NCBI GenBank assembly: GCA_964575755.1 | Contig: CAZNRH010000002.1 | Coordinates: 70,351 to 134,350 of the forward strand | Length of the DNA: 64,000 nt | Source of the DNA: an uncultured Candidatus Saccharibacteria bacterium | GTDB lineage: Bacteria; Patescibacteriota; Minisyncoccia; Phycocordibacterales; JABMNX01 | Reading direction: 5' to 3' | Shown here: piece after piece, positions 3,102 through 57,235 of the stretch | How the letters are laid out: every line of letters begins with the position of its first letter | Position numbering within the stretch: the first letter of the stretch is position 1 | Notes under the pieces: model-generated | What the model was told of the DNA's origin: nothing | Databases searched by the model: none | What the model saw: only the letters and a program-made list of their open reading frames with translations | Program-made: the position numbers and the translations under genes

Positions 3102-4157
3102 CTATTTAAGTAACTTCACAAGAGCGAGCTCTACTGGAAGTTGAGGAATATATGAACGAGATATTGCATCATATGCTCCAAGGAGCTCATATAGTACAAC
3201 TGAATTAATATGAGACTCCTTGCCCTCACTTAATTTTTTAAGAAATTCAAAATCTTCTTTTACAAACTGCTCTTTAAACCCTTTTTCCATTTCTTTTGCA
3301 TATTTAAGGAGCAAGACCACACGTACTTTATGGAGTACTAGCTTCATAAATGTTTTTATATCAAGGTTCTGTGCCACTACGTCCCCTACAACCTCAAGTG
3401 CATTTTCAAGCTTTTTCTCTGCAATAGCTTCGATAAAATTATTAATAAGCTTCCCTTTTGGCGCCCCTGTTACAAGCTCTACTTCTTCTATGCTTACTTT
3501 ATTGTATTTTGAAGATGAAAGTATCTTTTGCAAAACTCCATGTGCATCACGAAACGAACCCTCTGCAAGCATCGCTATTAAATCCGCTGAAGCTGGCTCT
3601 AGTGAGAATTTTTCCTTCTTCGCGATATCCGTTATCATTTTTGCTAAAATTTGTCTGCTTGGTTTTTTAAATGTAAAACTCTGACATCGCGATATTATCG
3701 TCTCTGGTAACTTCCCTTCTTCTGTTGTTGCCAGCATAAACACAACATGCTTTGGTGGCTCTTCAAGTGTCTTTAAGAGTGCATTAAAAGCTTCTTTAGT
3801 TAGCATGTGTACCTCGTCAATAATATAAACTTTGTACGGAGACTCAAATGGAAGTGTGTGTACTGACTCACGAAGTGCTCGTATGTCATCAATACCACGA
3901 TTTGAAGCAGCATCGATTTCATACATATCATTCTGTGATGCTCCTATCGCTCGCGCCAGTATACGCGCAATACTTGTCTTCCCTGTTCCTCGAGAACCAG
4001 AGAAAAGATATGCGTGTGATATATTTCCCTGCTCTATTGCACCCTCAAGCACAGAGACAATATGCTCCTGCCCGAGCACATCTTTAAACTCCTCAGGACG
4101 ATATTTCCTATAGAGCGCTGTTTGTCTATTTTGGCTGGCATTAGAATCTGCTGACAT
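3102..4157 (-). CDS. dnaX: DNA polymerase III subunit gamma/tau (short form)
   Basis: AAA+ Walker A GSRGTGKTS. DEVH box IIDEVHML. Sensor region TIISRCQSFTFKKP. Confidence 0.9.
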   Translation of the reverse strand: MSADSNASQNRQTALYRKYRPEEFKDVLGQEHIVSVLEGAIEQGNISHAYLFSGSRGTGKTSIARILARAIGASQNDMYEIDAASNRGIDDIRALRESVHTLPFESPYKVYIIDEVHMLTKEAFNALLKTLEEPPKHVVFMLATTEEGKLPETIISRCQSFTFKKPSRQILAKMITDIAKKEKFSLEPASADLIAMLAEGSFRDAHGVLQKILSSSKYNKVSIEEVELVTGAPKGKLINNFIEAIAEKKLENALEVVGDVVAQNLDIKTFMKLVLHKVRVVLLLKYAKEMEKGFKEQFVKEDFEFLKKLSEGKESHINSVVLYELLGAYDAISRSYIPQLPVELALVKLLK

Positions 4158-4238
4158 GAAAAGATTATACCACCCTAAACTAATAATTTGTAAACGAAAA
4201 AGCCGCCATACGTAATACGCAGGCGGCTTATGTTGAGG

Positions 4239-4523
4239 TTATGCTGTTACGGCCAAACCTCCTTTAAATTCTGATGAAATGGATAAAGTTTTTTCCATCC
4301 ACTGTTTCCAGTAGCTTGAGATGTCTATAGACTTTATAAACAAAAAAGCATCCAAAAACAACTCAAGTAATTGACCAGATACTGTCCTGATCTTGATTAA
4401 TGGTAGTATTCCCTCCCTTTCTGTAACTTTTACAACTTTAACTGGCATCCCAACATCTTGCTTGTTCGCAAATGTTAGGTCGGCAAAAGAGTTTTTAACC
4501 AGTACTTCACTTCCCTCAGTCAT
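4239..4523 (-). CDS. hypothetical protein
   Basis: 94-aa non-overlapping ORF between dnaX and dus. Confidence 0.35.
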   Translation of the reverse strand: MTEGSEVLVKNSFADLTFANKQDVGMPVKVVKVTEREGILPLIKIRTVSGQLLELFLDAFLFIKSIDISSYWKQWMEKTLSISSEFKGGLAVTA

Positions 4524-4596
4524 TCTTTATTTATTCCTTTAAATCATTTTTTAGTGGACAATTCCATAAATACTTTAACAGGAAGCGCTATATAAG

Positions 4597-5625
4597 TCAA
4601 GTTTTAAGGTATTTTGAGACTACATTTTCAACCTCAGATGCATCTTTAGCTTCCATAAGTTTTATGCGAAGCTCTTTTGCGCCATCCCACCCACTTACAT
4701 ACGCCTTATAGTGTTTCTTCATTACATTAAAACTTTTTACATCTCCAAGAAGCTCTTCGTAAAGTTTGGTGTGCTCAACTAAAACAGTGAGACGCTCTTC
4801 TATTGAAACCTCTCCTTTATCTCGATCAAATAACCATGGGTTACCGAAAACTGCACGCCCAAGCATCACTCCATCACACCCTGTCTCATCTACCTTTCTT
4901 TGGGCATCTTCTAGATCGACGACATCTCCATTACCAATTATAAATGTACCGCTTCCTAACTCGTCTCGTATTTCAACCGCTCTTTTTATCTGACCCCAAT
5001 CAGCGGGGACTTTCGACATCTCTTTACGTGTTCGCCCATGAACCGTAATTACGGCTGGTTTTGCTTTAAGTAGCGCAGGCAGCCACTCCTCTAGAATATT
5101 TGTACTGTAACCAATGCGAGTCTTTACAGAGACTGGAATATATTTACCACCTTCTTTTATAACCTCATCTACTCCGTCTTTCGCAGCTTGTATTAGTTCT
5201 TGAGCTAATTCAGGAGTCTTCATTAAAGAAGCACCTGAACCCTGTTTTTCAATACTTCTATCTGGGCACCCCATATTTATATCAAACCCATCAAATCCAC
5301 ACTCAACAGCATATTTTGCAGCTTTTTTCATGATGTCTGAACTTGAAGTAAAAAATTGTACAACAATCGGACGCTCTCCATCAGAGTAATTCATGTCTCT
5401 TTTTATCTTTTTTTGTCCTTTTTCATCTGCTAAAAATAACCCATCGGCAGAAATAAATTCCGTCCACATAACATCTGGCTTGCCATACTTCGCTATAACA
5501 CGCCTAAAAGCGACATCAGTGACATCTGCCATTGGTGCTAATACAAAAAATGGTTTTTTTAATTCCCCCCAGAACCCTATCTCATTTCCTTGTAACATGT
5601 TGACAAATATACCACACCATGACAT
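4597..5625 (-). CDS. dus: tRNA-dihydrouridine synthase
   Basis: FVLAPMADVTDVAFRR and INMGCPD motifs of the Dus TIM-barrel family. Confidence 0.85.
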   Translation of the reverse strand: MSWCGIFVNMLQGNEIGFWGELKKPFFVLAPMADVTDVAFRRVIAKYGKPDVMWTEFISADGLFLADEKGQKKIKRDMNYSDGERPIVVQFFTSSSDIMKKAAKYAVECGFDGFDINMGCPDRSIEKQGSGASLMKTPELAQELIQAAKDGVDEVIKEGGKYIPVSVKTRIGYSTNILEEWLPALLKAKPAVITVHGRTRKEMSKVPADWGQIKRAVEIRDELGSGTFIIGNGDVVDLEDAQRKVDETGCDGVMLGRAVFGNPWLFDRDKGEVSIEERLTVLVEHTKLYEELLGDVKSFNVMKKHYKAYVSGWDGAKELRIKLMEAKDASEVENVVSKYLKT

Positions 5626-6352: not shown

Positions 6353-7187
6353 ATTTCAACTTAAAATATACCTTATTACCAAAACGTAGATCTATGTATT
6401 CTATGTCTTCTGTATTCTTTTCTCTAAATGTTTCTGAATCGAGAACGACAGTAAGGTTATCGAGCACCTCAGACGATCCTTGTTTTCTTGTGAAGATAAT
6501 CTTACTCTCACCTTCTAGATAAAGCTCCATATTTGAGACACCTACTGTGTGTAATTCGATAGGTATAACCTCTAACTTTTTAAGTGAATCAATAAGAGTG
6601 TTCATTTTATTAAATTCGTCGTTTATTTTTAAATAATACTTACCTACATAATCTGGACCTATTAAATCTCCATAAAAACGCATGAAGACATTACCCGTAA
6701 AGTTGGGTGCTTTCGAGAATACAAACCCTTCCGTATTAATGAAATAACAATCCTCTGTTAATTCACTACTTTTATCAGTACACCAAAGAGCATACGGCTT
6801 CTGCTCCTCTATTTCCATGGATAAAGTTTGAAGGTCAGTACGCACGATATCAACTGACTCAATTTGCTTAAATGTGGTTAAGATAGAAGACTCTATCTCT
6901 TCTTCTGGAAAAATTAAACTGTTTGTACGCGGAAATAATAAAAAATATTTTCCACCCTCAAGAACCTCTTCTGTAACATCTTTTATTCTTGAGTCTGAAA
7001 TAACACTACTTCCATTTATAACAATATTGTTTATCTGCAAGTATGGACGATACGATACCCACGAACCTAAACCTATTAAAAGTATAATGACGACCACGCT
7101 ACCAACAATTTTCCATAAAAAAGATCTACGCCTACGTTTAGCAAGTCTTTCTGGTCGTGCTACTTTACATCTCCTAAACCACTTCAT
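6351..7187 (-). CDS. ftsQ: cell division protein FtsQ/DivIB-like
   Basis: Basic cytoplasmic N-terminus, one TM helix, POTRA-like region (VDIVRTDLQTLSMEIEEQKPYALW). Confidence 0.7.
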   Translation of the reverse strand: MKWFRRCKVARPERLAKRRRRSFLWKIVGSVVVIILLIGLGSWVSYRPYLQINNIVINGSSVISDSRIKDVTEEVLEGGKYFLLFPRTNSLIFPEEEIESSILTTFKQIESVDIVRTDLQTLSMEIEEQKPYALWCTDKSSELTEDCYFINTEGFVFSKAPNFTGNVFMRFYGDLIGPDYVGKYYLKINDEFNKMNTLIDSLKKLEVIPIELHTVGVSNMELYLEGESKIIFTRKQGSSEVLDNLTVVLDSETFREKNTEDIEYIDLRFGNKVYFKLK

Positions 7188-7299
7188 CCCGTACGAAATA
7201 GGACACGGACTAATGTTGCCATTGTCCTAAAGTTAAATCCTCTGTTAATTATCGACTTATTTTCCATATATTATGTTTGTATCCATGATTTCGTACGGG
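7188..7299 (-). repeat. start-codon-abutting inverted-repeat element (copy a, upstream of ftsQ) with internal 27-aa micro-ORF
   Basis: Arms cccgtacgaaataggacacgga and tccatgatttcgtacggg are complementary. The element ends exactly at the ftsQ ATG. Internal ORF MENKSIINRGFNFRTMATLVRVLFRTG spans 7184-7267 on the minus strand. Its TGA overlaps the ftsQ ATG as ATGA. Confidence 0.75.
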
Positions 7300-7306
7300 A
7301 TTTATA

Positions 7307-18263: not shown

Positions 18264-18773
18264 TTAAAAGGATGGCCCATATTCTTGTACACTACTATTT
18301 ACTTTCACTGGTGATGTGTCCTTTATTAGAGTATTGGACTGTGTTGATGTTTGGGATGATGAAGTATTACAGTTAACGCCCTTGAGTACATCAGTAATCT
18401 TACCTACACCGTCTCCAGTTAAGGTTGTAAGTAGAACGTTTACCACTAACCATCCCGTAAGAATAATTATAATTCCTATAAATGCATTAGTGAATATACT
18501 CTTAGCGTTAGATATTCTCCCCGGATCACTCCCTCCAGTGAAATAAAGAAATCCTGCATATGCAAACAAAAGTGCAACAACCGCAAAGGATACTTTTATT
18601 ATAAAATTGATAACGTTTTCAGCTAGTAATGCTAAGTGACACATATTACACTCTGGTCCATCGCACGGAACAAGTCCCCCTTGGGCATAGGAAATCTCTG
18701 GAGAGATAAAAAACACACCAAGCCCAGTAACCAATATAAAGGCGATAACGAGTATTATGGTTATGTTTTTCAT
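18264..18773 (-). CDS. secreted/membrane pilin-like protein (TrbC/VirB2-like fold)
   Basis: Signal peptide, then two TM helices (FAVVALLFAYAGFLYF and FIGIIIILTGWLVVNVLL) and a Ser/Thr-rich tail. Confidence 0.5.
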   Translation of the reverse strand: MKNITIILVIAFILVTGLGVFFISPEISYAQGGLVPCDGPECNMCHLALLAENVINFIIKVSFAVVALLFAYAGFLYFTGGSDPGRISNAKSIFTNAFIGIIIILTGWLVVNVLLTTLTGDGVGKITDVLKGVNCNTSSSQTSTQSNTLIKDTSPVKVNSSVQEYGPSF

Positions 18774-27001: not shown

Positions 27002-27074
27002 GACCACGTGGCGAAGTAGTTAACGCAGCGGTTTGCAAAACCGCCATACGCGGGTGCAGATCCCGCCGTGGTCT
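27002..27074 (+). tRNA. tRNA-Cys (anticodon GCA)
   Basis: Acceptor GACCACG/CGTGGTC. Anticodon stem GCGGT/ACCGC with loop TTGCAAA. Discriminator U. The T-loop TGCAGAT is atypical. Confidence 0.7.
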
Positions 27075-27125
27075 CAAGTTAAAATATCTTGTCTTCAAAC
27101 GACAAAAATATTTTTACGTAAATAT

Positions 27126-27209
27126 GCCGGGATGGTGGAATTGGTATACACGCAACACTTAAAATGTTGTGGGCGTAAGCCCATGCGGGTTCAACTCCCG
27201 CTCCCGGCA
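27126..27209 (+). tRNA. tRNA-Leu (anticodon UAA)
   Basis: Acceptor GCCGGGA/TCCCGGC. Anticodon stem CAACA/TGTTG with loop CTTAAAA. Long variable arm. Discriminator A. Confidence 0.8.
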
Positions 27210-27222
27210 CAAAGAGAAATGA

Positions 27223-27256
27223 ACCTCGTCTGAGAAGACGAGGTGATTTTCTTTTG
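27223..27256 (+). terminator. terminator after tRNA-Leu(UAA)
   Basis: Stem acctcgtct/agacgaggt followed by gattttctttt. Confidence 0.6.
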
Positions 27257-27258
27257 TA

Positions 27259-27388
27259 GCCGGGAGCGGGAGTTGAAAGACGGAAGCGGTATACAAGATG
27301 CGTAGTGAAACGGAGCAGGCTTGTCGCTGAGTCGGGGTCGAGAGTACTTAGTGCATAGCACTTAGTAACTCGTGACCAACTCCCGCTT
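27259..27388 (+). repeat. tRNA-linked AGACGGAAGC element (unit A)
   Basis: Starts with the reverse complement of the tRNA-Leu(UAA) 3' end (gccgggagcgggagttgaa). Then aagacggaagc. Core gctgagtcggggtcgaga. Ends ttagtaactcgtgacc plus a copy of the tRNA T-arm 3' strand (caactcccgct). Confidence 0.6.
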
Positions 27389-27457
27389 CTAATAGAAAAA
27401 CAAATTTGTTTTGTAACCTTTTTCTGTTACTATAACTCTTGTTATATTACACAACAT

Positions 27458-27530
27458 CCGCCTATAGCTCAGTTGGTAGAGCAACCGCCTCTTAAGCGGT
27501 GGGTCGCAGGTTCGAGTCCTGCTGGGCGGA
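27458..27530 (+). tRNA. tRNA-Lys (anticodon CUU)
   Basis: Acceptor CCGCCTA/TGGGCGG. D-arm GCTC-AGTTGGTA-GAGC. Anticodon loop CTCTTAA. T-arm GCAGG-TTCGAGT-CCTGC. Discriminator A. Confidence 0.85.
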
Positions 27531-27534
27531 CAAT

Positions 27535-27580
27535 GAAATAAAATACTCCCATTTTTGTGGGAGTATTTTATTTCATTTCT
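27535..27580 (+). terminator. long hairpin terminator after tRNA-Lys
   Basis: 17-bp stem gaaataaaatactccca/tgggagtattttatttc followed by atttcttc. Confidence 0.55.
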
Positions 27581-27588
27581 TCTACACT

Positions 27589-27720
27589 GGACTCGAAAGA
27601 CGGAAGCCCGCGTGCCAAAGCACGAGAGAGGGCTGAGTCGGGGTCGAGAACACTTAATATTTCAGGAATACCTGGACTAAAATATTTAGTGATTCGTGAC
27701 CGAGTCCTGCTGGGCGGACA
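27589..27720 (+). repeat. tRNA-linked AGACGGAAGC element (unit B)
   Basis: Starts ggactcgaa, the reverse complement of the tRNA-Lys T-loop/stem. Then agacggaagc. Core gctgagtcggggtcgaga. Ends tttagtgattcgtgacc plus an exact 20-nt copy of the tRNA-Lys 3' end (cgagtcctgctgggcggaca). Confidence 0.65.
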
Positions 27721-27796
27721 CGCGCAAAACAAAATACGCTATACCTATGGCGTATTTTGCTTTAACAAGCAAACTGCTTTGCTTGTGGAGCTTGTC

Positions 27797-27973
27797 CGAG
27801 ACGGAGCAATGTTTTGTTGCCTGTTTTTCCTAAGACAACAAAACCGCGAGCCCAGACCAAAAGCACTTAGTAGATTTCAAGCGAAGCGAAAAAATCTATT
27901 TAGTGACTTGTGGTGACTAAGTGATAAAATAAGGTTTGCGAATTTAGAAACCTGCGCCGAGTCCTTTAAATTA
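27797..27973 (+). repeat. GAGACGGAGC-motif element X1
   Basis: gagacggagcaatgttttgttgcc...aacaaaaccgcgag hairpin, then ...tttagtgacttgtggtgac...gcgaatttagaaacctg. Ends gcgccgagtcct, resembling the tRNA-Lys T-arm. Homologous to 46433-46532. Confidence 0.55.
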
Positions 27974-28021
27974 ACAACTTGTGATGACGAGGTACACTGC
28001 TTTTTGTATGTACTCGTGTCT

Positions 28022-28060
28022 GAGACGGAGTGATATTTTGGTACGATGCATCGCTCGGAA
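28022..28060 (+). repeat. GAGACGGAG-motif element X2 (short or partial)
   Basis: gagacggagtgatattttggtacgatgcatcgctc. Confidence 0.4.
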
Positions 28061-28125
28061 TAAATCAAACAAACACCACTTGAAACAAAATCAATACTAA
28101 ACTATACTAGTGGACACATATTAAT

Positions 28126-28189
28126 GTGCGAGTGGTGAAATTGGTAGGACAAACAGTGTTTAAACACTGTTTGTCCCCGTCGAGTGAGG
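28126..28189 (+). pseudogene. tRNA-like pseudogene (tRNA-Leu-derived 5' half, no T-arm or acceptor 3' strand)
   Basis: GTGCGAGTGGTGAAATTGGTAGGAC closely matches the 5' half of the adjacent tRNA-Leu (GCGCGAGTGGCGAAATTGGTAGAC). Followed by an aberrant anticodon hairpin with a 6-nt loop and no T-arm. Confidence 0.5.
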
Positions 28190-28218
28190 AAATGTTCGTT
28201 ATAAAAAATTGATAGTGT

Positions 28219-28300
28219 GCGCGAGTGGCGAAATTGGTAGACGCGCTAGTCTTAGGAACTAGTGGGGCAACCCATGGAGGTTCAAGTCCTCTCTCGCGCA
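28219..28300 (+). tRNA. tRNA-Leu (anticodon UAG)
   Basis: Acceptor GCGCGAG/CTCGCGC. Anticodon stem CTAGT/ACTAG with loop CTTAGGA. Long variable arm. Discriminator A. Confidence 0.85.
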
Positions 28301-28345
28301 CAGTGTCTATTTTTTATAGAACATAGTAAAAGGTATCGCAAGATG

Positions 28346-28373
28346 TGGAGGTTCAAGTCCTCTCTCGCGCACA
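28346..28373 (+). repeat. exact 28-nt direct copy of the tRNA-Leu(UAG) 3' end
   Basis: tggaggttcaagtcctctctcgcgcaca is identical to 28275-28302, with a 43-nt spacer. Confidence 0.8.
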
Positions 28374-28379
28374 TAAAAC

Positions 28380-28412
28380 AAAAAACACCTAGCTTACACT
28401 AGGTGTTTTTTG
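28380..28412 (+). terminator. rho-independent terminator
   Basis: Stem cacctag/ctaggtg followed by ttttttg. Confidence 0.6.
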
Positions 28413-28422
28413 TTTCACGAAC

Positions 28423-28812
28423 TTAAAAAGAAACATTATCATTATAATGAGAATAAAAGTTACCACCTCCACTTCCTCTCCTCTCTATCACACCTGGTAT
28501 AATCACATTTTGATCCTGTACACTAAAAGTAGATTGGAGCATTCTAATCAATCCCCAAATTGAAACCATTACAAAAAGAGCAATAATTCCATATATCATA
28601 ATGTCTCGCCCTTCGGATTTTTTATCCTCACTTCCTTGATTAAATATGAACTGAGCCAACCCCCAGAAGAAATAAAGCACTGCAAGAGCTAGTACCAACG
28701 GAATTGCCGTATTTATTAAGCTAGAAAAAGTACCCATCACAGCTTCCAAACTTTGAGCACTAGCCACTAGTGGCATAATAAGCAATCCTAACGCCACAAA
28801 AAATGTTTTCAT
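28423..28812 (-). CDS. TrbC/VirB2-like pilin-type small membrane protein
   Basis: Signal peptide MKTFFVALGLLIMPLVASA followed by two TM helices (AIPLVLALAVLYFFWGLAQ and IMIYGIIALFVMVSIWGLIRML). Confidence 0.6.
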   Translation of the reverse strand: MKTFFVALGLLIMPLVASAQSLEAVMGTFSSLINTAIPLVLALAVLYFFWGLAQFIFNQGSEDKKSEGRDIMIYGIIALFVMVSIWGLIRMLQSTFSVQDQNVIIPGVIERRGSGGGNFYSHYNDNVSF

Positions 28813-28837
28813 ATAATTTAATACTACAACACTATTA

Positions 28838-29086
28838 CTATATTGGCAAGTCGAACATATTTTCCATAAGTCTGACGATACCGAGTGCAGCGATCATAAC
28901 AAACATACCAATCACACCCCACAACATATGTACCTTTCCCTCTTTTCTGTCGTCTTCACTATCTGCCTTCCAGATAAAGACCGTCATACCCCACAGGAAA
29001 TACAAGAAAGCAGTTGCAAATAAAAGCAGTATAAGCGGGTTTATAATAACCGTATTTATGTTATCGATAAGCCTGTCTGTCGTCAT
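28838..29086 (-). CDS. TrbC/VirB2-like small membrane protein (no signal peptide)
   Basis: Two TM helices with the same ...FLWG...MLWGVIGMFVMIAALGIVRLM pattern as its neighbours. Confidence 0.45.
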   Translation of the reverse strand: MTTDRLIDNINTVIINPLILLLFATAFLYFLWGMTVFIWKADSEDDRKEGKVHMLWGVIGMFVMIAALGIVRLMENMFDLPI

Positions 29087-29095
29087 ACCTTACTA

Positions 29096-29431
29096 TTACC
29101 TCTTTACTTCCTTAGGAATAATAACAGTCTGATCTGTTACACTAAAAGTAGATTGGAGCATTCTAATCAATCCCCAAATTGAAACCATTACAAAAAGAGC
29201 AATAATTCCATATATCATAATGTCTCGCCCTTCGGATTTTTTATCCTCACTTCCTTGATTAAATATGAACTGAGCCAACCCCCAGAAGAAATAAAGCACT
29301 GCAAGAGCTAGTACCAACGGAATTGCCGTATTTATTAAGCTAGAAAAAGTACCCATCACAGCTTCCAAACTTTGAGCACTAGCCACTAGTGGCATAATAA
29401 GCAATCCTAACGCTACAAAAAATGTTTTCAT
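29096..29431 (-). CDS. TrbC/VirB2-like pilin, near-identical paralog of 28423-28812
   Basis: Start set at MKTFFVALG. The first ~100 codons are ~99 percent identical at DNA level to the paralog. The C-terminus differs. Confidence 0.6.
   Translation of the reverse strand: MKTFFVALGLLIMPLVASAQSLEAVMGTFSSLINTAIPLVLALAVLYFFWGLAQFIFNQGSEDKKSEGRDIMIYGIIALFVMVSIWGLIRMLQSTFSVTDQTVIIPKEVKR
29131..29431. repeat. ~300-bp segmental duplication (partner 28510-28812)
   Basis: Near-identical DNA over about 300 bp. Only isolated single-base differences were seen. It covers the 5' parts of two pilin genes. Confidence 0.8.
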
Positions 29432-29567
29432 ATAAAATTTATTTAATATTTCTTTTAATAGAAACCTTCTACTAATAATCAATTATAATTATAGAGTAAT
29501 AATAGCCGATAATTGCACTAAAGAGCAATCCAGCAGTGTGGATATAGTAAACCACACTAAAATTCAG

Positions 29568-29930
29568 CTAAATTCTTATAGTCTCACCTGGAGTATACTG
29601 CTGTTGCGTGGAACCACCAGAACCTAAAAAAGTATTACTTAAAAGACGTAAAATACCCCAAATAGATACCATAACAAAAAGTGCAATAATACCGTAAATC
29701 ATAAGCTTTCTGCCATCTTCTATCTTAGAAGTATCTCCAGCTGAAAATATATATTGAGAAACTCCCCAAAAGAACCCAAGAACTGCTAACGCAATTATTA
29801 TAGGAACCGCTAAATTAATAAAACCTACCAACAACCCAACAAGCTCAGGAAAAGTCTGCGGAGCAGCGAAAGTAACCATTGGAATAAATAGAAGTGCTGA
29901 TAATGTTAATATTGTAAGTCTTTTTAACAT
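29568..29930 (-). CDS. TrbC/VirB2-like pilin-type small membrane protein
   Basis: Signal peptide MLKRLTILTLSALLFIPMVTFA. TM helices AVPIIIALAVLGFFWG and LMIYGIIALFVMVSIWGILRLL. Confidence 0.6.
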   Translation of the reverse strand: MLKRLTILTLSALLFIPMVTFAAPQTFPELVGLLVGFINLAVPIIIALAVLGFFWGVSQYIFSAGDTSKIEDGRKLMIYGIIALFVMVSIWGILRLLSNTFLGSGGSTQQQYTPGETIRI

Positions 29931-29933
29931 AAT

Positions 29934-30350
29934 TTATCCAGTTAAAAGTCCGATAGTGTTTCTTACAATAATTGCCAATGTCCAAGAACCAAGGAATAAG
30001 GCTACCCCAATAATTGTATAGTAAAAAGTCTTCTTAGCTTCTTCAATCTTTGTTACATTACCCTGTGCTGTAACAAAAAGGAATCCAGAATACACAATAG
30101 ACAACACCGCTATTGGAAGTCCTATATTAATAACTGCCTTTAGAAGCAACTCAACAAATTTTTCAAAGCTATAGATACCGCTATTTTCTAATGGGTTTTC
30201 TAAACCAGCTGCAAGTGCATATGGTACTGTAACCATAAAAAAGAAAATAAATGTTGTTAATGTTTTTTGAATCCCATACGAAATAGGACACGGACTTATA
30301 GTATTTTTATCCACAAGTATAGATTTTATATTAATTGTCAACTTTTTCAT
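29934..30350 (-). CDS. TrbC/VirB2-like small membrane protein (start uncertain; N-terminus reads through a repeat element)
   Basis: Two TM helices (INIGLPIAVLSIVYSGFLF and IIGVALFLGSWTLAIIV). The ATG at 30350 lies in the loop of element copy b. An alternative ATG lies at 30236. Confidence 0.5.
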   Translation of the reverse strand: MKKLTINIKSILVDKNTISPCPISYGIQKTLTTFIFFFMVTVPYALAAGLENPLENSGIYSFEKFVELLLKAVINIGLPIAVLSIVYSGFLFVTAQGNVTKIEEAKKTFYYTIIGVALFLGSWTLAIIVRNTIGLLTG

Positions 30351-30393
30351 TTTTATTATAATTTTAATGTCCGTGATTTCGTACGGGACTAAT
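30272..30393 (-). repeat. inverted-repeat element (copy b) between the SBP-like gene and the pilin gene
   Basis: Arms atcccatacgaaataggacacggac and gtccgtgatttcgtacggga. An in-frame ATG in the internal loop (MKKLTINIKS...) is homologous to the micro-ORF of copies a and c. Confidence 0.7.
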
Positions 30394-30395
30394 AC

Positions 30396-31703
30396 TTATC
30401 TTAGCAAATTTTGTAACTCTTTATGGGCAGTACTTACTGACTCACTCGTCCTCAGTCTACCAGAAACAACTGACTCTATCATTAGTTTAAATATTTCATC
30501 TGTCTTGCTTACACTGGGGTCGAGCCAAGCACGAGACTGAAGCGCTGCGTCGGCAAAAATAACTTTAAATGGATCCGATGGCCTGTTGGCTAACAATGAC
30601 CTTGATACTGGAGATAGGCCTGTCTTTTCTGACATATCCTGCAAGACCGAGTCAGACGTAAGTGCAAAAGCTATCTGCATTGCTCCTGCAATATTCTTTG
30701 ATGTTCTTGGAATCGCTAAGCCTGTAATATTTCCAAAGGTAATATTATTGTTACTACTTCGAACCTGCGGAACAAGAGCGACATCGAAATTTAAGTTGGC
30801 GTTTTTTTCTCTTATAGATGAAAGCTCGCTCGCAAAACCTACGTAGTTAGAAAGTATTCCGGATACAAAGGCTTGTTTTGATTCTGGTAATGCACGGTTC
30901 CATGTATAAATGGTCTTTGTGGGGTTTGCAAAATCTGTATAAAAACGGAGAGCATTCTCAGCAGGCACCTGTCCATCACTTAATTGACGAACTAGCCCCG
31001 AAGACAAAGAACCGTTACTTCCAACTAATACTAAATCACCCCCTGCCTGCAGTATCAACATCGAGAGTAACTCTTTTGCATGTGCAATGTTTTGATACTC
31101 TCCAATTGACAAAGCGCTTTTAAATATTTCCCCACTGTCACCACGTGTTGTTAATGAACCATTAAGAGCAAACGACACTATCTCATCCCAAAACCGTGGC
31201 GGTCGAGATATTCCAGCTTGAGAATAATGATCCCTGTTCCAATAAAGAACCAACGGGTCAACAGTGAAAGGAAGGGCGGTAATACCATTCCCACTTAAAA
31301 ACAATTCTGCTTCTTGAATAAAAGCATCTTTAAACTCACGCTGTGACATAACGTCATATGAAATTGGATAAATCTTATCCCCGTGCCTTAAAATAGTGTC
31401 TTGGCTTAAGAAAAACAAATCAGGACCTCTCTGAGACGCAAGGGCTTCTACTAATTCCTCATCAAAAAAACGTACATCTTTTTCAATATATGTAACTTGG
31501 TCAAAACGGTCATCGTTAAATGAAGCCTCTCTTATGAGTGCCTCCATAACCTTGTCGTCATACGTACCCCAAATCACTACCTCGCCTACATTAGCGCCGC
31601 CACCTCCAAACCCGCCAACACCAGCAAAGAGCATCACTCCAACCACTGTAAAAAATATAAAGGCTCCAGTAACAACTATTTTAAATACGCTTAATTTATT
31701 CAT
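30396..31703 (-). CDS. membrane-anchored extracellular solute-binding-protein-like protein
   Basis: N-terminal TM/signal anchor, Gly-rich linker, then a periplasmic-binding-protein-like pattern (VVIWGTYDDKVMEALI...). Weak assignment. Confidence 0.4.
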   Translation of the reverse strand: MNKLSVFKIVVTGAFIFFTVVGVMLFAGVGGFGGGGANVGEVVIWGTYDDKVMEALIREASFNDDRFDQVTYIEKDVRFFDEELVEALASQRGPDLFFLSQDTILRHGDKIYPISYDVMSQREFKDAFIQEAELFLSGNGITALPFTVDPLVLYWNRDHYSQAGISRPPRFWDEIVSFALNGSLTTRGDSGEIFKSALSIGEYQNIAHAKELLSMLILQAGGDLVLVGSNGSLSSGLVRQLSDGQVPAENALRFYTDFANPTKTIYTWNRALPESKQAFVSGILSNYVGFASELSSIREKNANLNFDVALVPQVRSSNNNITFGNITGLAIPRTSKNIAGAMQIAFALTSDSVLQDMSEKTGLSPVSRSLLANRPSDPFKVIFADAALQSRAWLDPSVSKTDEIFKLMIESVVSGRLRTSESVSTAHKELQNLLR

Positions 31704-31823
31704 CCCGTACGAAATAGGACACGGACTTAAACAGCCCTTGTCTCTATGTTTAATATTCTATTAATTATCGACTTATTTATCATATATTGTTTCTGTGTCC
31801 GTGATTTCGTACGGGATTCATAG
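31704..31823 (-). repeat. start-codon-abutting inverted-repeat element (copy c) with an 18-aa micro-ORF
   Basis: Arms cccgtacgaaataggacacggac and gtccgtgatttcgtacggg with an outer attcatag motif. Micro-ORF MINKSIINRILNIETRAV spans 31727-31783 on the minus strand. The element ends exactly at the ATG of the 30396-31703 gene. Confidence 0.75.
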
Positions 31824-53675: not shown

Positions 53676-54359
53676 TTATTTTTCTATATCTGATATGATC
53701 TGCCTTCTAAAAGCAGTCAGTCTTTTACCTCCCATTTTTTCATATACACTTAGTTCCACATGATGTTTTTTACACAAAAAACAAAGACTATTTTTCTTTG
53801 AATGTAGATGTATGTACTGTAATAATATTTTATATACGTCGTATTTCTCTGTACCAGAAATGTATCCGTGGTCACATGCTATCTTCAAATTATCCGGTCT
53901 ACTTTTTTGAAGGTGTACTGTATCTAAATCATTCCTATTGCACTCTGGGAACTGACAAGTTGTCACAATCTTCTTTAATGGACTAAAAAAACTTTGAGTT
54001 ATATTGCGGACTTCACCTGACAACATAGTAAGCACCTTTAAATCTGAGTTTGTAACAATATAAATGTCTCTATATTTCTCAAAAAACTTTGGCTTAGTAG
54101 ACTTAAAAATAATATCAACTTTTTTTCTATCTTGAGCGACCATAATACCTTTAATAATCGCCAAGCTCTCTTGTTTACGAAAACAAAATAGCTTATTTTT
54201 GTCTTTATCTTGAATATTATATTTTTTAAGTATTTTCCACGACTTGAATCCTTTACTATTTACTGAATCATGTCCAAGCATATTATCAAGCTGCCTAGTT
54301 GACAGGCCTGATTTCAAGAAATGTAGCAAAACATCTTTATCTTTAGTATTAAATTTCAT
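53676..54359 (-). CDS. HNH-type endonuclease-like protein
   Basis: CQFPEC...LDTVHLQKSRPDNLKIACDHGY...CFLCKKHH has an HNH-like H/N/H arrangement with flanking Cys pairs. Start set at the internal Met (MKFNTKD). Confidence 0.5.
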   Translation of the reverse strand: MKFNTKDKDVLLHFLKSGLSTRQLDNMLGHDSVNSKGFKSWKILKKYNIQDKDKNKLFCFRKQESLAIIKGIMVAQDRKKVDIIFKSTKPKFFEKYRDIYIVTNSDLKVLTMLSGEVRNITQSFFSPLKKIVTTCQFPECNRNDLDTVHLQKSRPDNLKIACDHGYISGTEKYDVYKILLQYIHLHSKKNSLCFLCKKHHVELSVYEKMGGKRLTAFRRQIISDIEK

Positions 54360-54581
54360 AGTATTAATATACTCGTTTACCAAGTAAAACAAAACCAACT
54401 AGTGATACATAGGTTGCCATTACCTCACTTGTCAAGTTTTATAACAAGCCAACAGAGTAATAAGTACGAGTTGTAGAAGAAAAAAGCGTGTTTAATACAA
54501 AAAAACGAGCAATTACCGTGTTATCATTTATGGTATATCAAAAAGAGAAAATTGATATAATCAATTATATAAAATAACTTT

Positions 54582-56435
54582 ATGCAAAAAGATTTAGAGA
54601 AAACTTTAAATAATTATAGTCCTTTTATTATTGAAACAGCTCTTGTTCAATTATTTATTGACTCTAATAATTTAACTGTAAAAAAAAATGAACTTATTAG
54701 ATCTCTACTAGAAAATAAAAGTGAAGAAATTCTGAAAGCTAAGGAGTTTCTAATAAACAAGATAGAAACAAAAAATATAATCGACTTTGTAAATATATTT
54801 GAATTACTAATTCCTTTAGATGATAAAAAAAATAACGGAGCCTTCTTTACTCCGTCAAATATTACTGATTTTATAGTTTCTGAAACAATAGACTCAAGAT
54901 CTCAGAGAATTCTAGACCCTAGTTGCGGGTGTGGCGCTTTCCTTATCTCTGCCACAGACTTTATTGCAAAAAAATATAATAAGAGTGTCACGAAAACAAT
55001 TGAAGAAAATATATTTGGAGTGGACATAGCAAAATACAGCATAAAAAGAGCTAAAATTCTTCTTTCGCTTCTCGCTCTTAAAAATAATGAGGATAAAAAA
55101 GAAATAAAATTCAATCTTAAAACAAAAGACAGTTTGACGACTGACTGGAAAAAATTATTTCCAGAAATAAAAAATGGGTTCGACGTGGTTATAGGTAATC
55201 CTCCTTATGTTAAATTCCAAGACCTTAACGAAGACCTAAGGAAAAGTCTGTCTAAAAATTGGCAAACCCTAAATACTGGAAATTATAATCTTTATTTTGC
55301 CTTCTTTGAGTTAGGAATTAGTGTTATGAAAAATACTGGAGTACTTGGTTATATTACACCTAACAACTATTTTACTTCCTTAGCGGGAATTCATCTCAGA
55401 GAATTCCTAGAATCTAATAGGTTAATAGAAAAAATTATTGATTTCAACCACTTTAAAGTTTTTGATGCTCAAACATATACAAGTATAAGTTTTTTAAGTA
55501 AAGGTAATAACGTATCTTTCGATTATGAAAAAATCGATGACTGTGCGAAATTAAATTCATTAAAAAAATTACAATACTCGAAAATAAATTTTAGTGATTT
55601 AAATAATAAAAAATGGCGACTTCTACGTCATGGTGATCAAGAGAATATAAAAAAAATTGAAAATATAGGTAGAAAACTAGGAGATATAGTAAAAATTAGA
55701 GTTGGAGTAGCTACATGCAAAGATTCTGTGTACTTTGTGGACGGTTCAACTTTTGATGGAAAATATTTACATAAATCATACAACGGGAAGGATTATTTTA
55801 TTGAAAAAGACATTACTCAATCAATAGCAAAAATTTCTGACTTTAAAGCACAAGATGACCTAGGCGAAAACAATCGAAGAATAATTTTCCCTTATAGAAA
55901 AAAAAATAGAAACGTAGAAATCATTGAGGAAGATAAGTTAAAAAAAAAATACCCTTATTGTTATAAGTATCTTATGGCTGCTAAGTCAGAACTGGCATCA
56001 AGAGACAAGGGAGCTGTTAATTATCCAGAATGGTACGCCTACGCAAGAACCCAAGGACTTAATTTTTTAGGGAAAAAGCTACTTACTCCAACATTCAGCT
56101 CTAAGCCAAGGTTTCTGCTTGAAAAGAATGAAAATACACTATTCTGTAACGGATATGCTATTTACTTAGACAATAGACCGTCTTTATTTTACAAAACTGA
56201 ACAAAAATTAAATCTGTCCATTCTTAGCAAAATACTCAATTCGTCTATAATGGAATACTACATTAAACAAACTAGCGTATCTATTGATGGTGGGTACCCA
56301 TGCTATCAAAAGAATTTTATTGAACTGTTAGGAATTCCGGACTTCACCTCAAACGAACTAGGTTACTTAAACAGGGAAAAAGATGGAAAATTAATTAATG
56401 ATTTTTTAACAGGTAAATACGGTGTGCAAATCTAG
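54582..56435 (+). CDS. N6-adenine DNA methyltransferase, Eco57I-like (gamma-class) with C-terminal target-recognition region
   Basis: Motif I ILDPSCGCGAFL. Motif IV VIGNPPYV. Preceded by FFTPSNITDFIV. Confidence 0.85.
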   Translation: MQKDLEKTLNNYSPFIIETALVQLFIDSNNLTVKKNELIRSLLENKSEEILKAKEFLINKIETKNIIDFVNIFELLIPLDDKKNNGAFFTPSNITDFIVSETIDSRSQRILDPSCGCGAFLISATDFIAKKYNKSVTKTIEENIFGVDIAKYSIKRAKILLSLLALKNNEDKKEIKFNLKTKDSLTTDWKKLFPEIKNGFDVVIGNPPYVKFQDLNEDLRKSLSKNWQTLNTGNYNLYFAFFELGISVMKNTGVLGYITPNNYFTSLAGIHLREFLESNRLIEKIIDFNHFKVFDAQTYTSISFLSKGNNVSFDYEKIDDCAKLNSLKKLQYSKINFSDLNNKKWRLLRHGDQENIKKIENIGRKLGDIVKIRVGVATCKDSVYFVDGSTFDGKYLHKSYNGKDYFIEKDITQSIAKISDFKAQDDLGENNRRIIFPYRKKNRNVEIIEEDKLKKKYPYCYKYLMAAKSELASRDKGAVNYPEWYAYARTQGLNFLGKKLLTPTFSSKPRFLLEKNENTLFCNGYAIYLDNRPSLFYKTEQKLNLSILSKILNSSIMEYYIKQTSVSIDGGYPCYQKNFIELLGIPDFTSNELGYLNREKDGKLINDFLTGKYGVQI

Positions 56436-57235
56436 AAAATATCTTTACTCCCGAATCTTTTAGTATAAATATCTAACATATCTTTTGTAAATCCACTTAT
56501 TGTAAGATTTTTCAAGTTGACTTTTGTGTTTTTAGAAACCAACCCATCCATCTTCAACTCTTTAATTGAAGAATAAAGTTTAGGGCTTTTTTTTCTGAAA
56601 TCAACAATTAAAAGACAGACTCTTTCATATTTATACTCGTTTCCTTTTATAGAATGTCTGTTATTAATGGCTTGAAACATTCGTATGTATTCTTCTATAT
56701 TTGAAACTGACTTGAATTCTACTTTATTTTGCAACATTGCTTTATCATCATATTCGTGAGTAGGTATTAAGTATACTTCTCCCATACACTGTTTAGGATG
56801 ATTTAAATGTAAGTTTAAAGCTTCTGCAAACGTTCTCTCATATAAAGTGTCAATGTTTTTCTTTAAGCTACTTAATTGACTACGTACATTAACGCTAATA
56901 ATCCTTTTTATTCTAGGATCATCAGTATTAGTTATAGGTATCAACTCAATATTAGGAATAATGACGATGTCTTGGTTTTTTGACTTTAAAAACCCTTTGA
57001 TTTTAATCTCAGGACTAGATTCTCCAACTGGTGGAAAAATCTTTTGTGATTGAACTTTATTTTCTACAAAATCTCTTTTTATAAAATCATGAATAATATT
57101 TATTATTTTTTGGGAACGAATTAAAGCTTCTTTGGCTTTATGTCCATTTTCATATGTATTACCATTAAACTTCGAAGTGGTAATTGCTTCGTCATAATCT
57201 TTCTTTATTTTTTTGAGAACCTGTTGTATTGTCAT
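56432..57235 (-). CDS. candidate restriction endonuclease partner (unclassified)
   Basis: 267-aa ORF convergent with and overlapping the methyltransferase stop. Possible PD-D/ExK-like D...E(V)K segments. No firm family assignment. Confidence 0.35.
   Translation of the reverse strand: MTIQQVLKKIKKDYDEAITTSKFNGNTYENGHKAKEALIRSQKIINIIHDFIKRDFVENKVQSQKIFPPVGESSPEIKIKGFLKSKNQDIVIIPNIELIPITNTDDPRIKRIISVNVRSQLSSLKKNIDTLYERTFAEALNLHLNHPKQCMGEVYLIPTHEYDDKAMLQNKVEFKSVSNIEEYIRMFQAINNRHSIKGNEYKYERVCLLIVDFRKKSPKLYSSIKELKMDGLVSKNTKVNLKNLTISGFTKDMLDIYTKRFGSKDIF

Follow-up and report, generated by a model that had tools for sequence, protein, structure and literature searches.

A probable VirB2-like pilin module headed by an anchored binding-protein homologue in a Patescibacterial chromosome, with a class-3 gene pair best explained by gene conversion

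What do the five small genes that follow a binding-protein-like gene in a 64-kb stretch of Patescibacterial DNA (the window) encode, and how did two of them come to have nearly identical heads and different tails? The six closely spaced genes occupy positions 28423–31703 of the minus strand and code for one 435-aa protein and five small proteins, which a first-pass annotation had described as pilin-type, together with a sixth such gene at 18264–18773. We consider it likely that the locus forms part of the core chromosome of a Patescibacterium (Paceibacteria/Parcubacteria) as an operon-like module, which combines an anchored solute-binding-protein (SBP)-like gene with four ancient classes of VirB2-like (PF18895) pilins and a lineage-specific additional class-3 copy, that its pilins are assembled by a type IV secretion system (T4SS), and that the class-3 pair has undergone gene conversion.

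All features described below lie on the minus strand unless a plus is given, and the class numbers follow from the comparison with relatives. Read along that strand, the gene for the membrane-anchored SBP homologue (30396–31703) is followed by the class-1 pilin gene (29934–30350, 138 aa, PF18895 score 31.9 bits), the most TrbC/VirB2-like of the set; the class-2 gene (29568–29930, 120 aa, 32.0 bits), coding for a signal peptide and a two-helix hairpin; copy B of class 3 (29096–29431, 111 aa, 34.4 bits), which has the tail VTDQTVIIPKEVKR and stands at the orthologous position; the class-4 gene (28838–29086, 82 aa, 35.0 bits), coding for a leaderless helical hairpin only; and copy A of class 3 (28423–28812, 129 aa, 33.9 bits), apparently a lineage-specific extra with a longer, different C-terminal tail, VQDQNVIIPGVIERRGSGGGNFYSHYNDNVSF. 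The spacers between the five pilin genes are 3, 136, 9, and 25 nt, and because they are this short, the genes of the array are probably co-transcribed. Behind copy A, sequence inspection and an inverted-repeat search revealed an inverted repeat (28376–28415) with perfect arms of 17 bp and T-runs, a hairpin that is the probable terminator of the array. The solitary sixth pilin gene (18264–18773, 169 aa, 30.9 bits) is located between tRNA-Trp and tRNA-Tyr, and its product carries Cys-rich and Ser/Thr-rich extensions.

The small proteins were scored against three profiles, whose gathering scores are 26.6 bits for PF18895 (T4SS_pilin), 27.9 bits for PF04956 (TrbC/VirB2), and 40 bits for NF045849 (Mbov_0395 pilin-like). 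We found that 6/6 genes scored above the PF18895 cutoff, at 30.9–35.0 bits, and that a hidden Markov model (HMM) made from the pilin family matched exactly these six open reading frames (ORFs) across the whole window (E=3e-25 for the solitary gene). The pilin-type assignment of the five cluster genes and the sixth gene thus stands, and the VirB2/TrbC-like shape that had been proposed for them was borne out at the family level, as Pfam defines the superfamily. PF18895 was also matched by 10/10 class-1 orthologues. With PF04956, the class-1 gene of the window gave E=1.1e-5 and 26.0 bits, below the cutoff and therefore short of formal membership; the sixth gene scored 14.1 bits, and the remaining window pilins had no match. 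The same profile was matched at E<=1e-3 by nine of the ten class-1 orthologues (best E=1.5e-7), and the sequence similarity supports kinship of the pilins to TrbC/VirB2, though the window genes miss the threshold. The five cluster genes aligned to the full NF045849 profile, all below its threshold; the best was the 82-aa gene (E=1.8e-7, 30.7 bits), and the other cluster genes scored 15–17 bits. The class-2 pilin has 59 homologues, nearly all of them PF18895 proteins; some homologues carry the name “pilin” at NCBI, and homologues and loci are labelled Paceibacterota, Kaiserbacteria, or Patescibacteria. A tblastn search of plasmids with the class-1 pilin returned a single non-significant match, to an Mbov_0395 pilin-like gene (E=0.2). 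Nothing suggested a phage origin, and a PHROGs search was without matches.

Hydropathy profiles of 28423–28812, 29096–29431, 29568–29930, 29934–30350, and 18264–18773 revealed a signal-like segment followed by two hydrophobic helices, which are connected by a short, K/R/E/D-rich loop. The 82-aa gene at 28838–29086 encodes two helices only and no signal peptide. Since the first helix stands at the very start of its product, and stop codons are found directly upstream of its ATG, we conclude that it is leaderless. The description of all five cluster products as signal-peptide plus two-helix proteins thus held for four of them and failed for this one, and the conjugative-pilin topology (signal peptide, two transmembrane helices, short loop) is likewise complete except in the 82-aa protein. 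AlphaFold2 models place helices at residues 2–20, 27–62, and 67–103 of the class-2 pilin (mean predicted local distance difference test score, pLDDT, 79) and at residues 3–39 and 44–78 of the class-4 pilin (pLDDT 80). Some conserved motifs are class-specific and may serve in processing or interaction: class-1 pilins carry an invariant N-P-L immediately behind the predicted cleavage site of the signal peptide and G-F-L-F..A-Q-G where helix 1 ends, and class-3 pilins have ..(I/V)(I/V)-P.. within the C-terminal tail.

The first gene of the group was correctly recognized at first pass as coding for a membrane-anchored binding-protein-like product. It matches PF13416 (E=6.2e-12, 46.3 bits) and PF01547 (E=1.6e-9, 38.6 bits), in both cases above the gathering score, and its protein has an N-terminal hydrophobic anchor (residues 3–34), followed by a Gly-rich linker. 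Weak matches to MalE/sugar SBPs were obtained in PDB and NCBIfam, and more than 745 homologues are labelled Paceibacterota/Kaiserbacteria. No ATP-binding cassette (ABC) permease or ATPase genes were found beside the SBP gene in the window or in relatives, its neighbours being a methyltransferase gene and the pilin genes.

We compared the array with relatives L004/L009, L005, L006, L007, L008, L010, L011, and L012. In these eight, the order of the block is peptidyl-tRNA hydrolase, S1, a metallo-β-lactamase (MBL)-fold protein, GyrA, methyltransferase, SBP, 4–5 pilins, tRNAs, RbfA, and IF-2. The SBP gene, which opens the conserved module, is always directly upstream of the pilin array, with a gap of 1–3 nt or an overlap in L010–L012; its product is 82% identical to that of the window in L004/L009, 64–66% in L005 and L006, 43–48% in L010–L012, and 36–37% in L007 and L008. 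Behind it, four pilin classes follow in fixed order: class 1 (NPL motif, match to TrbC), class 2, class 3 (tail of the IIP type), and class 4, leaderless and ~80 aa long, whose orthologues of 80–87 aa close the array in every relative.

Orthologues of the window pilins are 53–79% identical in L009, L005, and L006 and ~38–53% identical in the more distant loci, with 70/60/53% for class 2 and 71/65/67% for copy B against the third pilin of L009/L005/L006. Within the window, paralogues share 27–53% identity, except for the A/B pair (95%). Orthologues are thus more alike than paralogues, and therefore the classes are older than the species splits. Their conservation by position across relatives argues for distinct roles, which the four classes probably have, instead of the antigenic or surface variation that had been suggested in the first-pass annotation. 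The best matches of copy A are likewise the third pilins of L009/L005/L006 (74/66/66%). In the closest relative, L009, classes 1–4 are present, the leaderless pilin is directly followed by tRNA-Leu, and copy A is absent; judged from this comparison, copy A would be either an extra class-3 gene specific to the lineage of the window or one that was lost in L009. Fifth pilins occur elsewhere as well, namely an extra class-1 gene in L010/L011 and an extra leaderless gene in L007/L008, and those duplicates are strongly diverged. Evidently, such arrays grow by occasional duplication of differing members.

The two class-3 genes of the window had been noted as ~99% identical at the DNA level over ~300 bp with diverging C-termini, and the alignment agrees: positions 28519–28816 on the copy A side and 29138–29435 on the copy B side are identical at 297/298 nt (99.7%), which cannot be attributed to chance. 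The 298-nt tract extends from 4 nt upstream of the ATG, where the similarity also stops, to ORF nt 294, and its sole mismatch is a synonymous GTG/GTA at ORF nt 18. At ORF nt 294/295 there is a step, beyond which 17/42 nt differ (59.5% identity). The two proteins share residues 1–98 and end in tails of 32 residues in copy A (VQDQNVIIPGVIERRGSGGGNFYSHYNDNVSF) and 14 residues in copy B (VTDQTVIIPKEVKR). The abrupt fall from 99.7% to ~60% identity is characteristic of a recombination tract. The tail of copy A retains a class-3 motif, VQDQNVIIPG, compared with VQDQRVIIPG in the closest relative, where the class-3 tail is VQDQRVIIPGEIR, and similar ..(I/V)(I/V)P.. tails are found in many homologues. 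Because the diverged tail of copy A keeps the class-3 motif, copy A was a complete class-3 gene before the heads came to match. The best reading of the alignment is that the A/B pair consists of older paralogues whose first 98 codons were probably homogenised lately by gene conversion. The pair would then either double the dosage of a single mature core or present that core with two alternative tails.

The same pair can be read, as it was at first pass, as a recent duplication followed by C-terminal diversification; in its full form, the C-terminus would have come under rapid diversifying selection after a very recent tandem duplication, in the service of antigenic or surface (host-range) variation. 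The two proteins are indeed identical over 98 residues and differ solely in a tail with a predicted extracellular location, the class that was duplicated varies between lineages, and the authors of a survey of Patescibacterial pilin arrays raise the possibility that variable pilins assist in adapting to different hosts (PMC12102498). However, 1 substitution in 298 nt beside 17 in 42 would require an implausible contrast of rates, for which tract boundaries are the simpler explanation. There are also no promoterless or startless silent cassettes, each gene having its own start and four having signal peptides, and the four classes are conserved one-to-one across genomes, unlike variation cassettes. 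The abrupt identity step and the retained class-3 tail motif fit gene conversion better, and we regard recent duplication with diversifying selection as unlikely.

Gene conversion among paralogous pilin or surface-protein genes is known for Neisseria pilE/pilS and for the VirB2 paralogues of Bartonella and Anaplasma, and antigenic or surface (host-range) variation has been proposed for the VirB2 paralogue arrays of the latter two. The window pair resembles these systems in having a mosaic tract between paralogous pilin genes and variation confined to the surface-exposed part. Unlike them, the window has one tract, both partners are complete expressible genes, and there are no silent cassettes; moreover, the tract homogenises the conserved core and imports no variable sequence. 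The pilE/pilS arrangement of one expression locus, silent startless donors, and many mosaic tracts is thus not that of the window array.

How might the products work? Family and topology suggest that the pilins would be inserted in the membrane as helical hairpins, four through a Sec signal peptide and one leaderless, with the short, positively charged loop in the cytoplasm and the N- and C-termini facing outward. By analogy with conjugative pili, the tails would be exposed outside. Published work on Patescibacteria suggests that a T4SS encoded elsewhere in the genome could build from them a pilus-like or conduit structure for the epibiotic lifestyle. In Southlakia epibionticum, epibiotic growth requires a pilin array that is located inside a T4SS cluster (PMC10633639, Wang et al., Cell 2023); a pilus was proposed there, not shown (PMC10633639; PMC12857230).

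Several points weigh against the reading of the locus as a T4SS-assembled pilin module with a gene-converted pair. We infer the link of the array to a T4SS, and VirB4, VirB6, VirD4, or a T4SS ATPase was found in none of the 40 other ORFs of the 64-kb window that were scanned against Pfam, in agreement with the first-pass statement that VirB4, VirB6, and ATPase genes are missing nearby; the only ATPase close by is ClpB. To our knowledge, a pilus has been demonstrated for no Patescibacterial VirB2-like protein. The class-1 gene falls 1.9 bits short of the PF04956 cutoff, and searches of PDB sequences with the family profiles brought up no significant match to a solved VirB2 or TraA pilin, the best conjugative-pilin match being pKM101 TraM (E=0.16, not significant). 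Finally, the timing of the duplication relative to the split from the closest relative rests on 42 nt of tail only.

These points bear most directly on the main rival, according to which the small proteins would not be pilus subunits at all; they would act as two-helix membrane proteins together with the SBP in a T4SS-independent complex, possibly an uptake or receptor module for host-derived compounds in an organism that has few transporters. The invariable position of the SBP gene directly upstream of the array is consistent with such a complex, as is the finding that neither ABC permease or ATPase genes accompany the SBP gene nor T4SS genes occur in the window. T4SS assembly genes (VirB3, VirB4, VirB6) were likewise absent from the 12–17 kb loci of the eight relatives. 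In addition, fold searches did not separate the pilin hairpin from other hairpins. In Paceibacteria, virB4 is usually located near dnaA/dnaN, i.e., elsewhere (PMC12102498). The adjacency on which this alternative rests lies in a syntenic, compact region: because conservation and close spacing extend to everything around these genes (gyrA, methyltransferase, tRNAs, rbfA, infB), the proximity of the SBP and pilin genes is weak functional evidence. The profile matches are specifically to the pilin families PF18895, PF04956, and NF045849, and the homologous array of Southlakia is both inside a T4SS cluster and essential. An action of the hairpin proteins independent of a T4SS therefore appears quite improbable to us.

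A bolder proposal keeps the pilins as pilins. The SBP and the four fixed classes may form a self-contained Paceibacteria module, set away from the T4SS genes, in which the SBP would act at or with a VirB2-type filament or channel and capture host-derived molecules, and conversion between class-3 genes would preserve one assembly-competent core on which alternative external tails are displayed. We think it rather unlikely that all of this holds; if true, it would give the first handle on the role of essential Patescibacterial pilins.

Contigs of other assemblies were used to check the first-pass caveat that the near-identical pair might come from the assembly. In L001 (GCA_006243245.1) and L002 (Logan, SRR6439370), unique upstream sequence runs into the head of copy B, and in L003 (GCA_006243105.1, two samples), the tail of B is followed by the 82-aa gene and then by the head of A, with the A-specific base. 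Together with the window, these contigs cover four distinct junctions, and the sequence of the A tail and of the terminator is unique. The end of unitig L002 lies exactly 30 nt past the single copy-specific base; judged from the coordinates, this end point is therefore the branch expected of a k=31 graph that holds both copies. An artefact, whether through collapse or chimerism of a repeat or through the tandem joining of two strain haplotypes, is hardly credible, and the duplication is real: short-read metagenome contigs of other assemblies do break within the repeat, as is expected of a true repeat, and exact look-up of the 129-aa and 111-aa products gave no match, but each copy has its own unique flanks (the spacer before the B head; the 82-aa gene before the A head, and the A tail followed by the terminator), an assembler cannot invent the unique A tail, a strain variant of B would share the neighbours of B, which copy A does not, and the 90% protein cluster has two members on the 178,523-bp source contig.

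The arrangement as such is already described for Patescibacteria (PMC12102498, PMC10633639). VirB2-like pilins (PF18895, PF04956) occur in 1,948 Patescibacteria assemblies and are near virB4 in only 1,135 (PMC12102498), and 441 arrays of 2–11 pilin genes were reported in 383 assemblies, within which identity averages 25% and reaches at most 54% (PMC12102498, Quinonero-Coronel et al., Microb Genom 2025). By the published definition of at least two PF18895/PF04956 genes of a Patescibacteria genome that are tandem or have a single non-pilin gene between them, the window locus, with five adjacent genes, is such an array. It is like the published ones in that its genes are tandem and chromosomal, its number of genes falls within 2–11, most paralogues are strongly diverged, and there is no relaxase or conjugative context. 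It is unlike them in that it is not in a T4SS cluster, none being present within 64 kb, in that it is headed by a conserved SBP-like gene, for which the survey has no term (PMC12102498), and in the 95% identity of one pair, compared with the reported maximum of 54%. Published arrays were described as most abundant in Microgenomatia and Saccharimonadia, while the window array is a conserved Paceibacteria locus. The conserved SBP-like partner, the fixed order of four classes, and a 95%-identical pair of the kind that we ascribe to gene conversion are absent from the two papers.

Two better known pilin families can also be set beside the locus. The window pilins share with the TrbC/VirB2 (PF04956) pilins of Gram-negative T4SSs a signal peptide and a pair of hydrophobic helices with a short charged loop. 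They are unlike them in score (26.0 vs 27.9 bits for class 1 and no match for classes 2–4), in the monoderm host, and in the lack of adjacent virB3/virB4. The Mbov_0395 family (NF045849) of Mycoplasma integrative and conjugative elements (ICEs) is similar in comprising a small, ~80-aa two-helix protein of monoderm systems of the mating-pair-formation (MPF) FATA type, but all window scores are below 40 bits, and the context of the window is not that of an ICE.

The sole Patescibacterial species tested cannot grow epibiotically without its VirB2-like pilins. The locus leaves the current picture unchanged and adds to it that the array in Paceibacteria is a fixed set of four classes and not one of random variants, that this array always follows an orphan membrane-anchored binding protein, and that copies can apparently be homogenised by gene conversion while their tails, exposed if they behave as in conjugative pili, differ. 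The binding protein, the motifs peculiar to each class, and the tails thereby become candidates for study.

Two repeat elements that abut start codons had been noticed in the cluster, and both were recovered. The 3′ end of one structured element (31703–31816) abuts the ATG of the SBP gene; the second (30272–30388) lies between the SBP stop codon and the class-1 pilin gene and supplies the predicted present start codon of that gene. A repeat search located a third copy in the window at 7187–7300. The element is ~114–125 nt long and has a variable interior and near-invariant inverted-repeat ends, CCCGTACGAAAT-CACGGAC ... GTCCGTG-TCCT-ATTTCGTACGGG. Its 3′ end reads ...CGTACGGGAT, and the next base is G in 13/14 copies in total, which creates an ATG. 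That ATG is the true start of unrelated genes, coding for the ribosomal proteins L3, L36, and S18, FtsA, a PilB-type ATPase, an amidase, a glycoside hydrolase of family 1 (GH1), a TrmB regulator, and the SBP. Ten further metagenome loci (L013–L022) on contigs with a GC content of 0.38–0.51 carry the element, and its orientation relative to the gene is always the same. The predicted RNA fold of the copy at 31703–31816 has an energy of −42.3 kcal/mol (z = −7.6). At gathering thresholds, Rfam matched tRNAs only, so the element is not a described RNA family, and a literature search for start-codon-associated miniature inverted-repeat transposable elements (MITEs) in Candidate Phyla Radiation (CPR) bacteria found nothing.

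Both cluster copies are insertions, because they are absent at the orthologous sites in the closest relative: the one before the SBP gene is missing in L004, and in L009 only 5 nt separate the SBP stop codon from the pilin ATG, an empty site. The 5′ flank of the element repeats the first bases of the gene (ATGAA or ATGGA) and looks like a target-site duplication that contains the start codon. Under a crude gene model, start codons account for only 36% of the non-disruptive ATGRA sites in the window, and the location of 13/13 elements at start codons is unexpected against this share (P ~2e-6, with the same crude model). The class-1 pilin lacks the start codon used by its orthologues (MRFIQK... 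in L009), and its ORF begins at an ATG inside the element. The predicted product consequently has an N-terminal extension of 26 aa ahead of the signal peptide, derived from the interior and the 3′ arm of the element; it stands as an insertion in the alignment and is absent from all class-1 orthologues. In a contig from the metagenome of L003 (L017, VAPL011095695.1; 23.6 kb, with a similar GC content of 0.376), an element of the same subtype directly precedes a PilB-type type II/IV secretion ATPase gene (3574–5394; PF00437, MshEN). The contig may belong to the same or a sister genome, and the enzyme is of the kind that serves type IV pili, as distinct from the ATPases of a T4SS.

Downstream of the array, the tRNA block at 27002–28373 (Cys, Leu-taa, Lys, Leu-tag) measures ~1.3 kb, compared with 0.55–1.6 kb in relatives. 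The 3′ 28–50 nt of tRNA-Leu(tag) recur at 28324–28373, just downstream of copy A, the 3′ 20 nt of tRNA-Lys recur at 27701–27720, and a fragment like the 5′ part of tRNA-Leu is found at 28125–28147. These partial copies may be scars of integration/excision or slippage beside the insertion point of copy A. The adjoining tRNA-Leu 3′ copy led us to consider a possible integrative-element origin of copy A; there is no integrase, and only ~22 nt lie between this 3′ copy and the intact tRNA.

The Pfam-matched ORFs among the 40 scanned are housekeeping or other ordinary chromosomal genes, including those for ClpB, IF-2, GyrA, TopA, RelA/SpoT, ParB, MiaA, FtsA, FtsZ, SerRS, and DnaX, and nine have no Pfam match. 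In a low-GC island (GC 0.285 in 54001–56000), ORFs 53676–54398 and 56432–57235, both without a Pfam match, flank a gene on the plus strand (54582–56435) for a 617-aa restriction-modification methylase fusion of the Eco57I/N6_Mtase type, probably a horizontally acquired defence gene.

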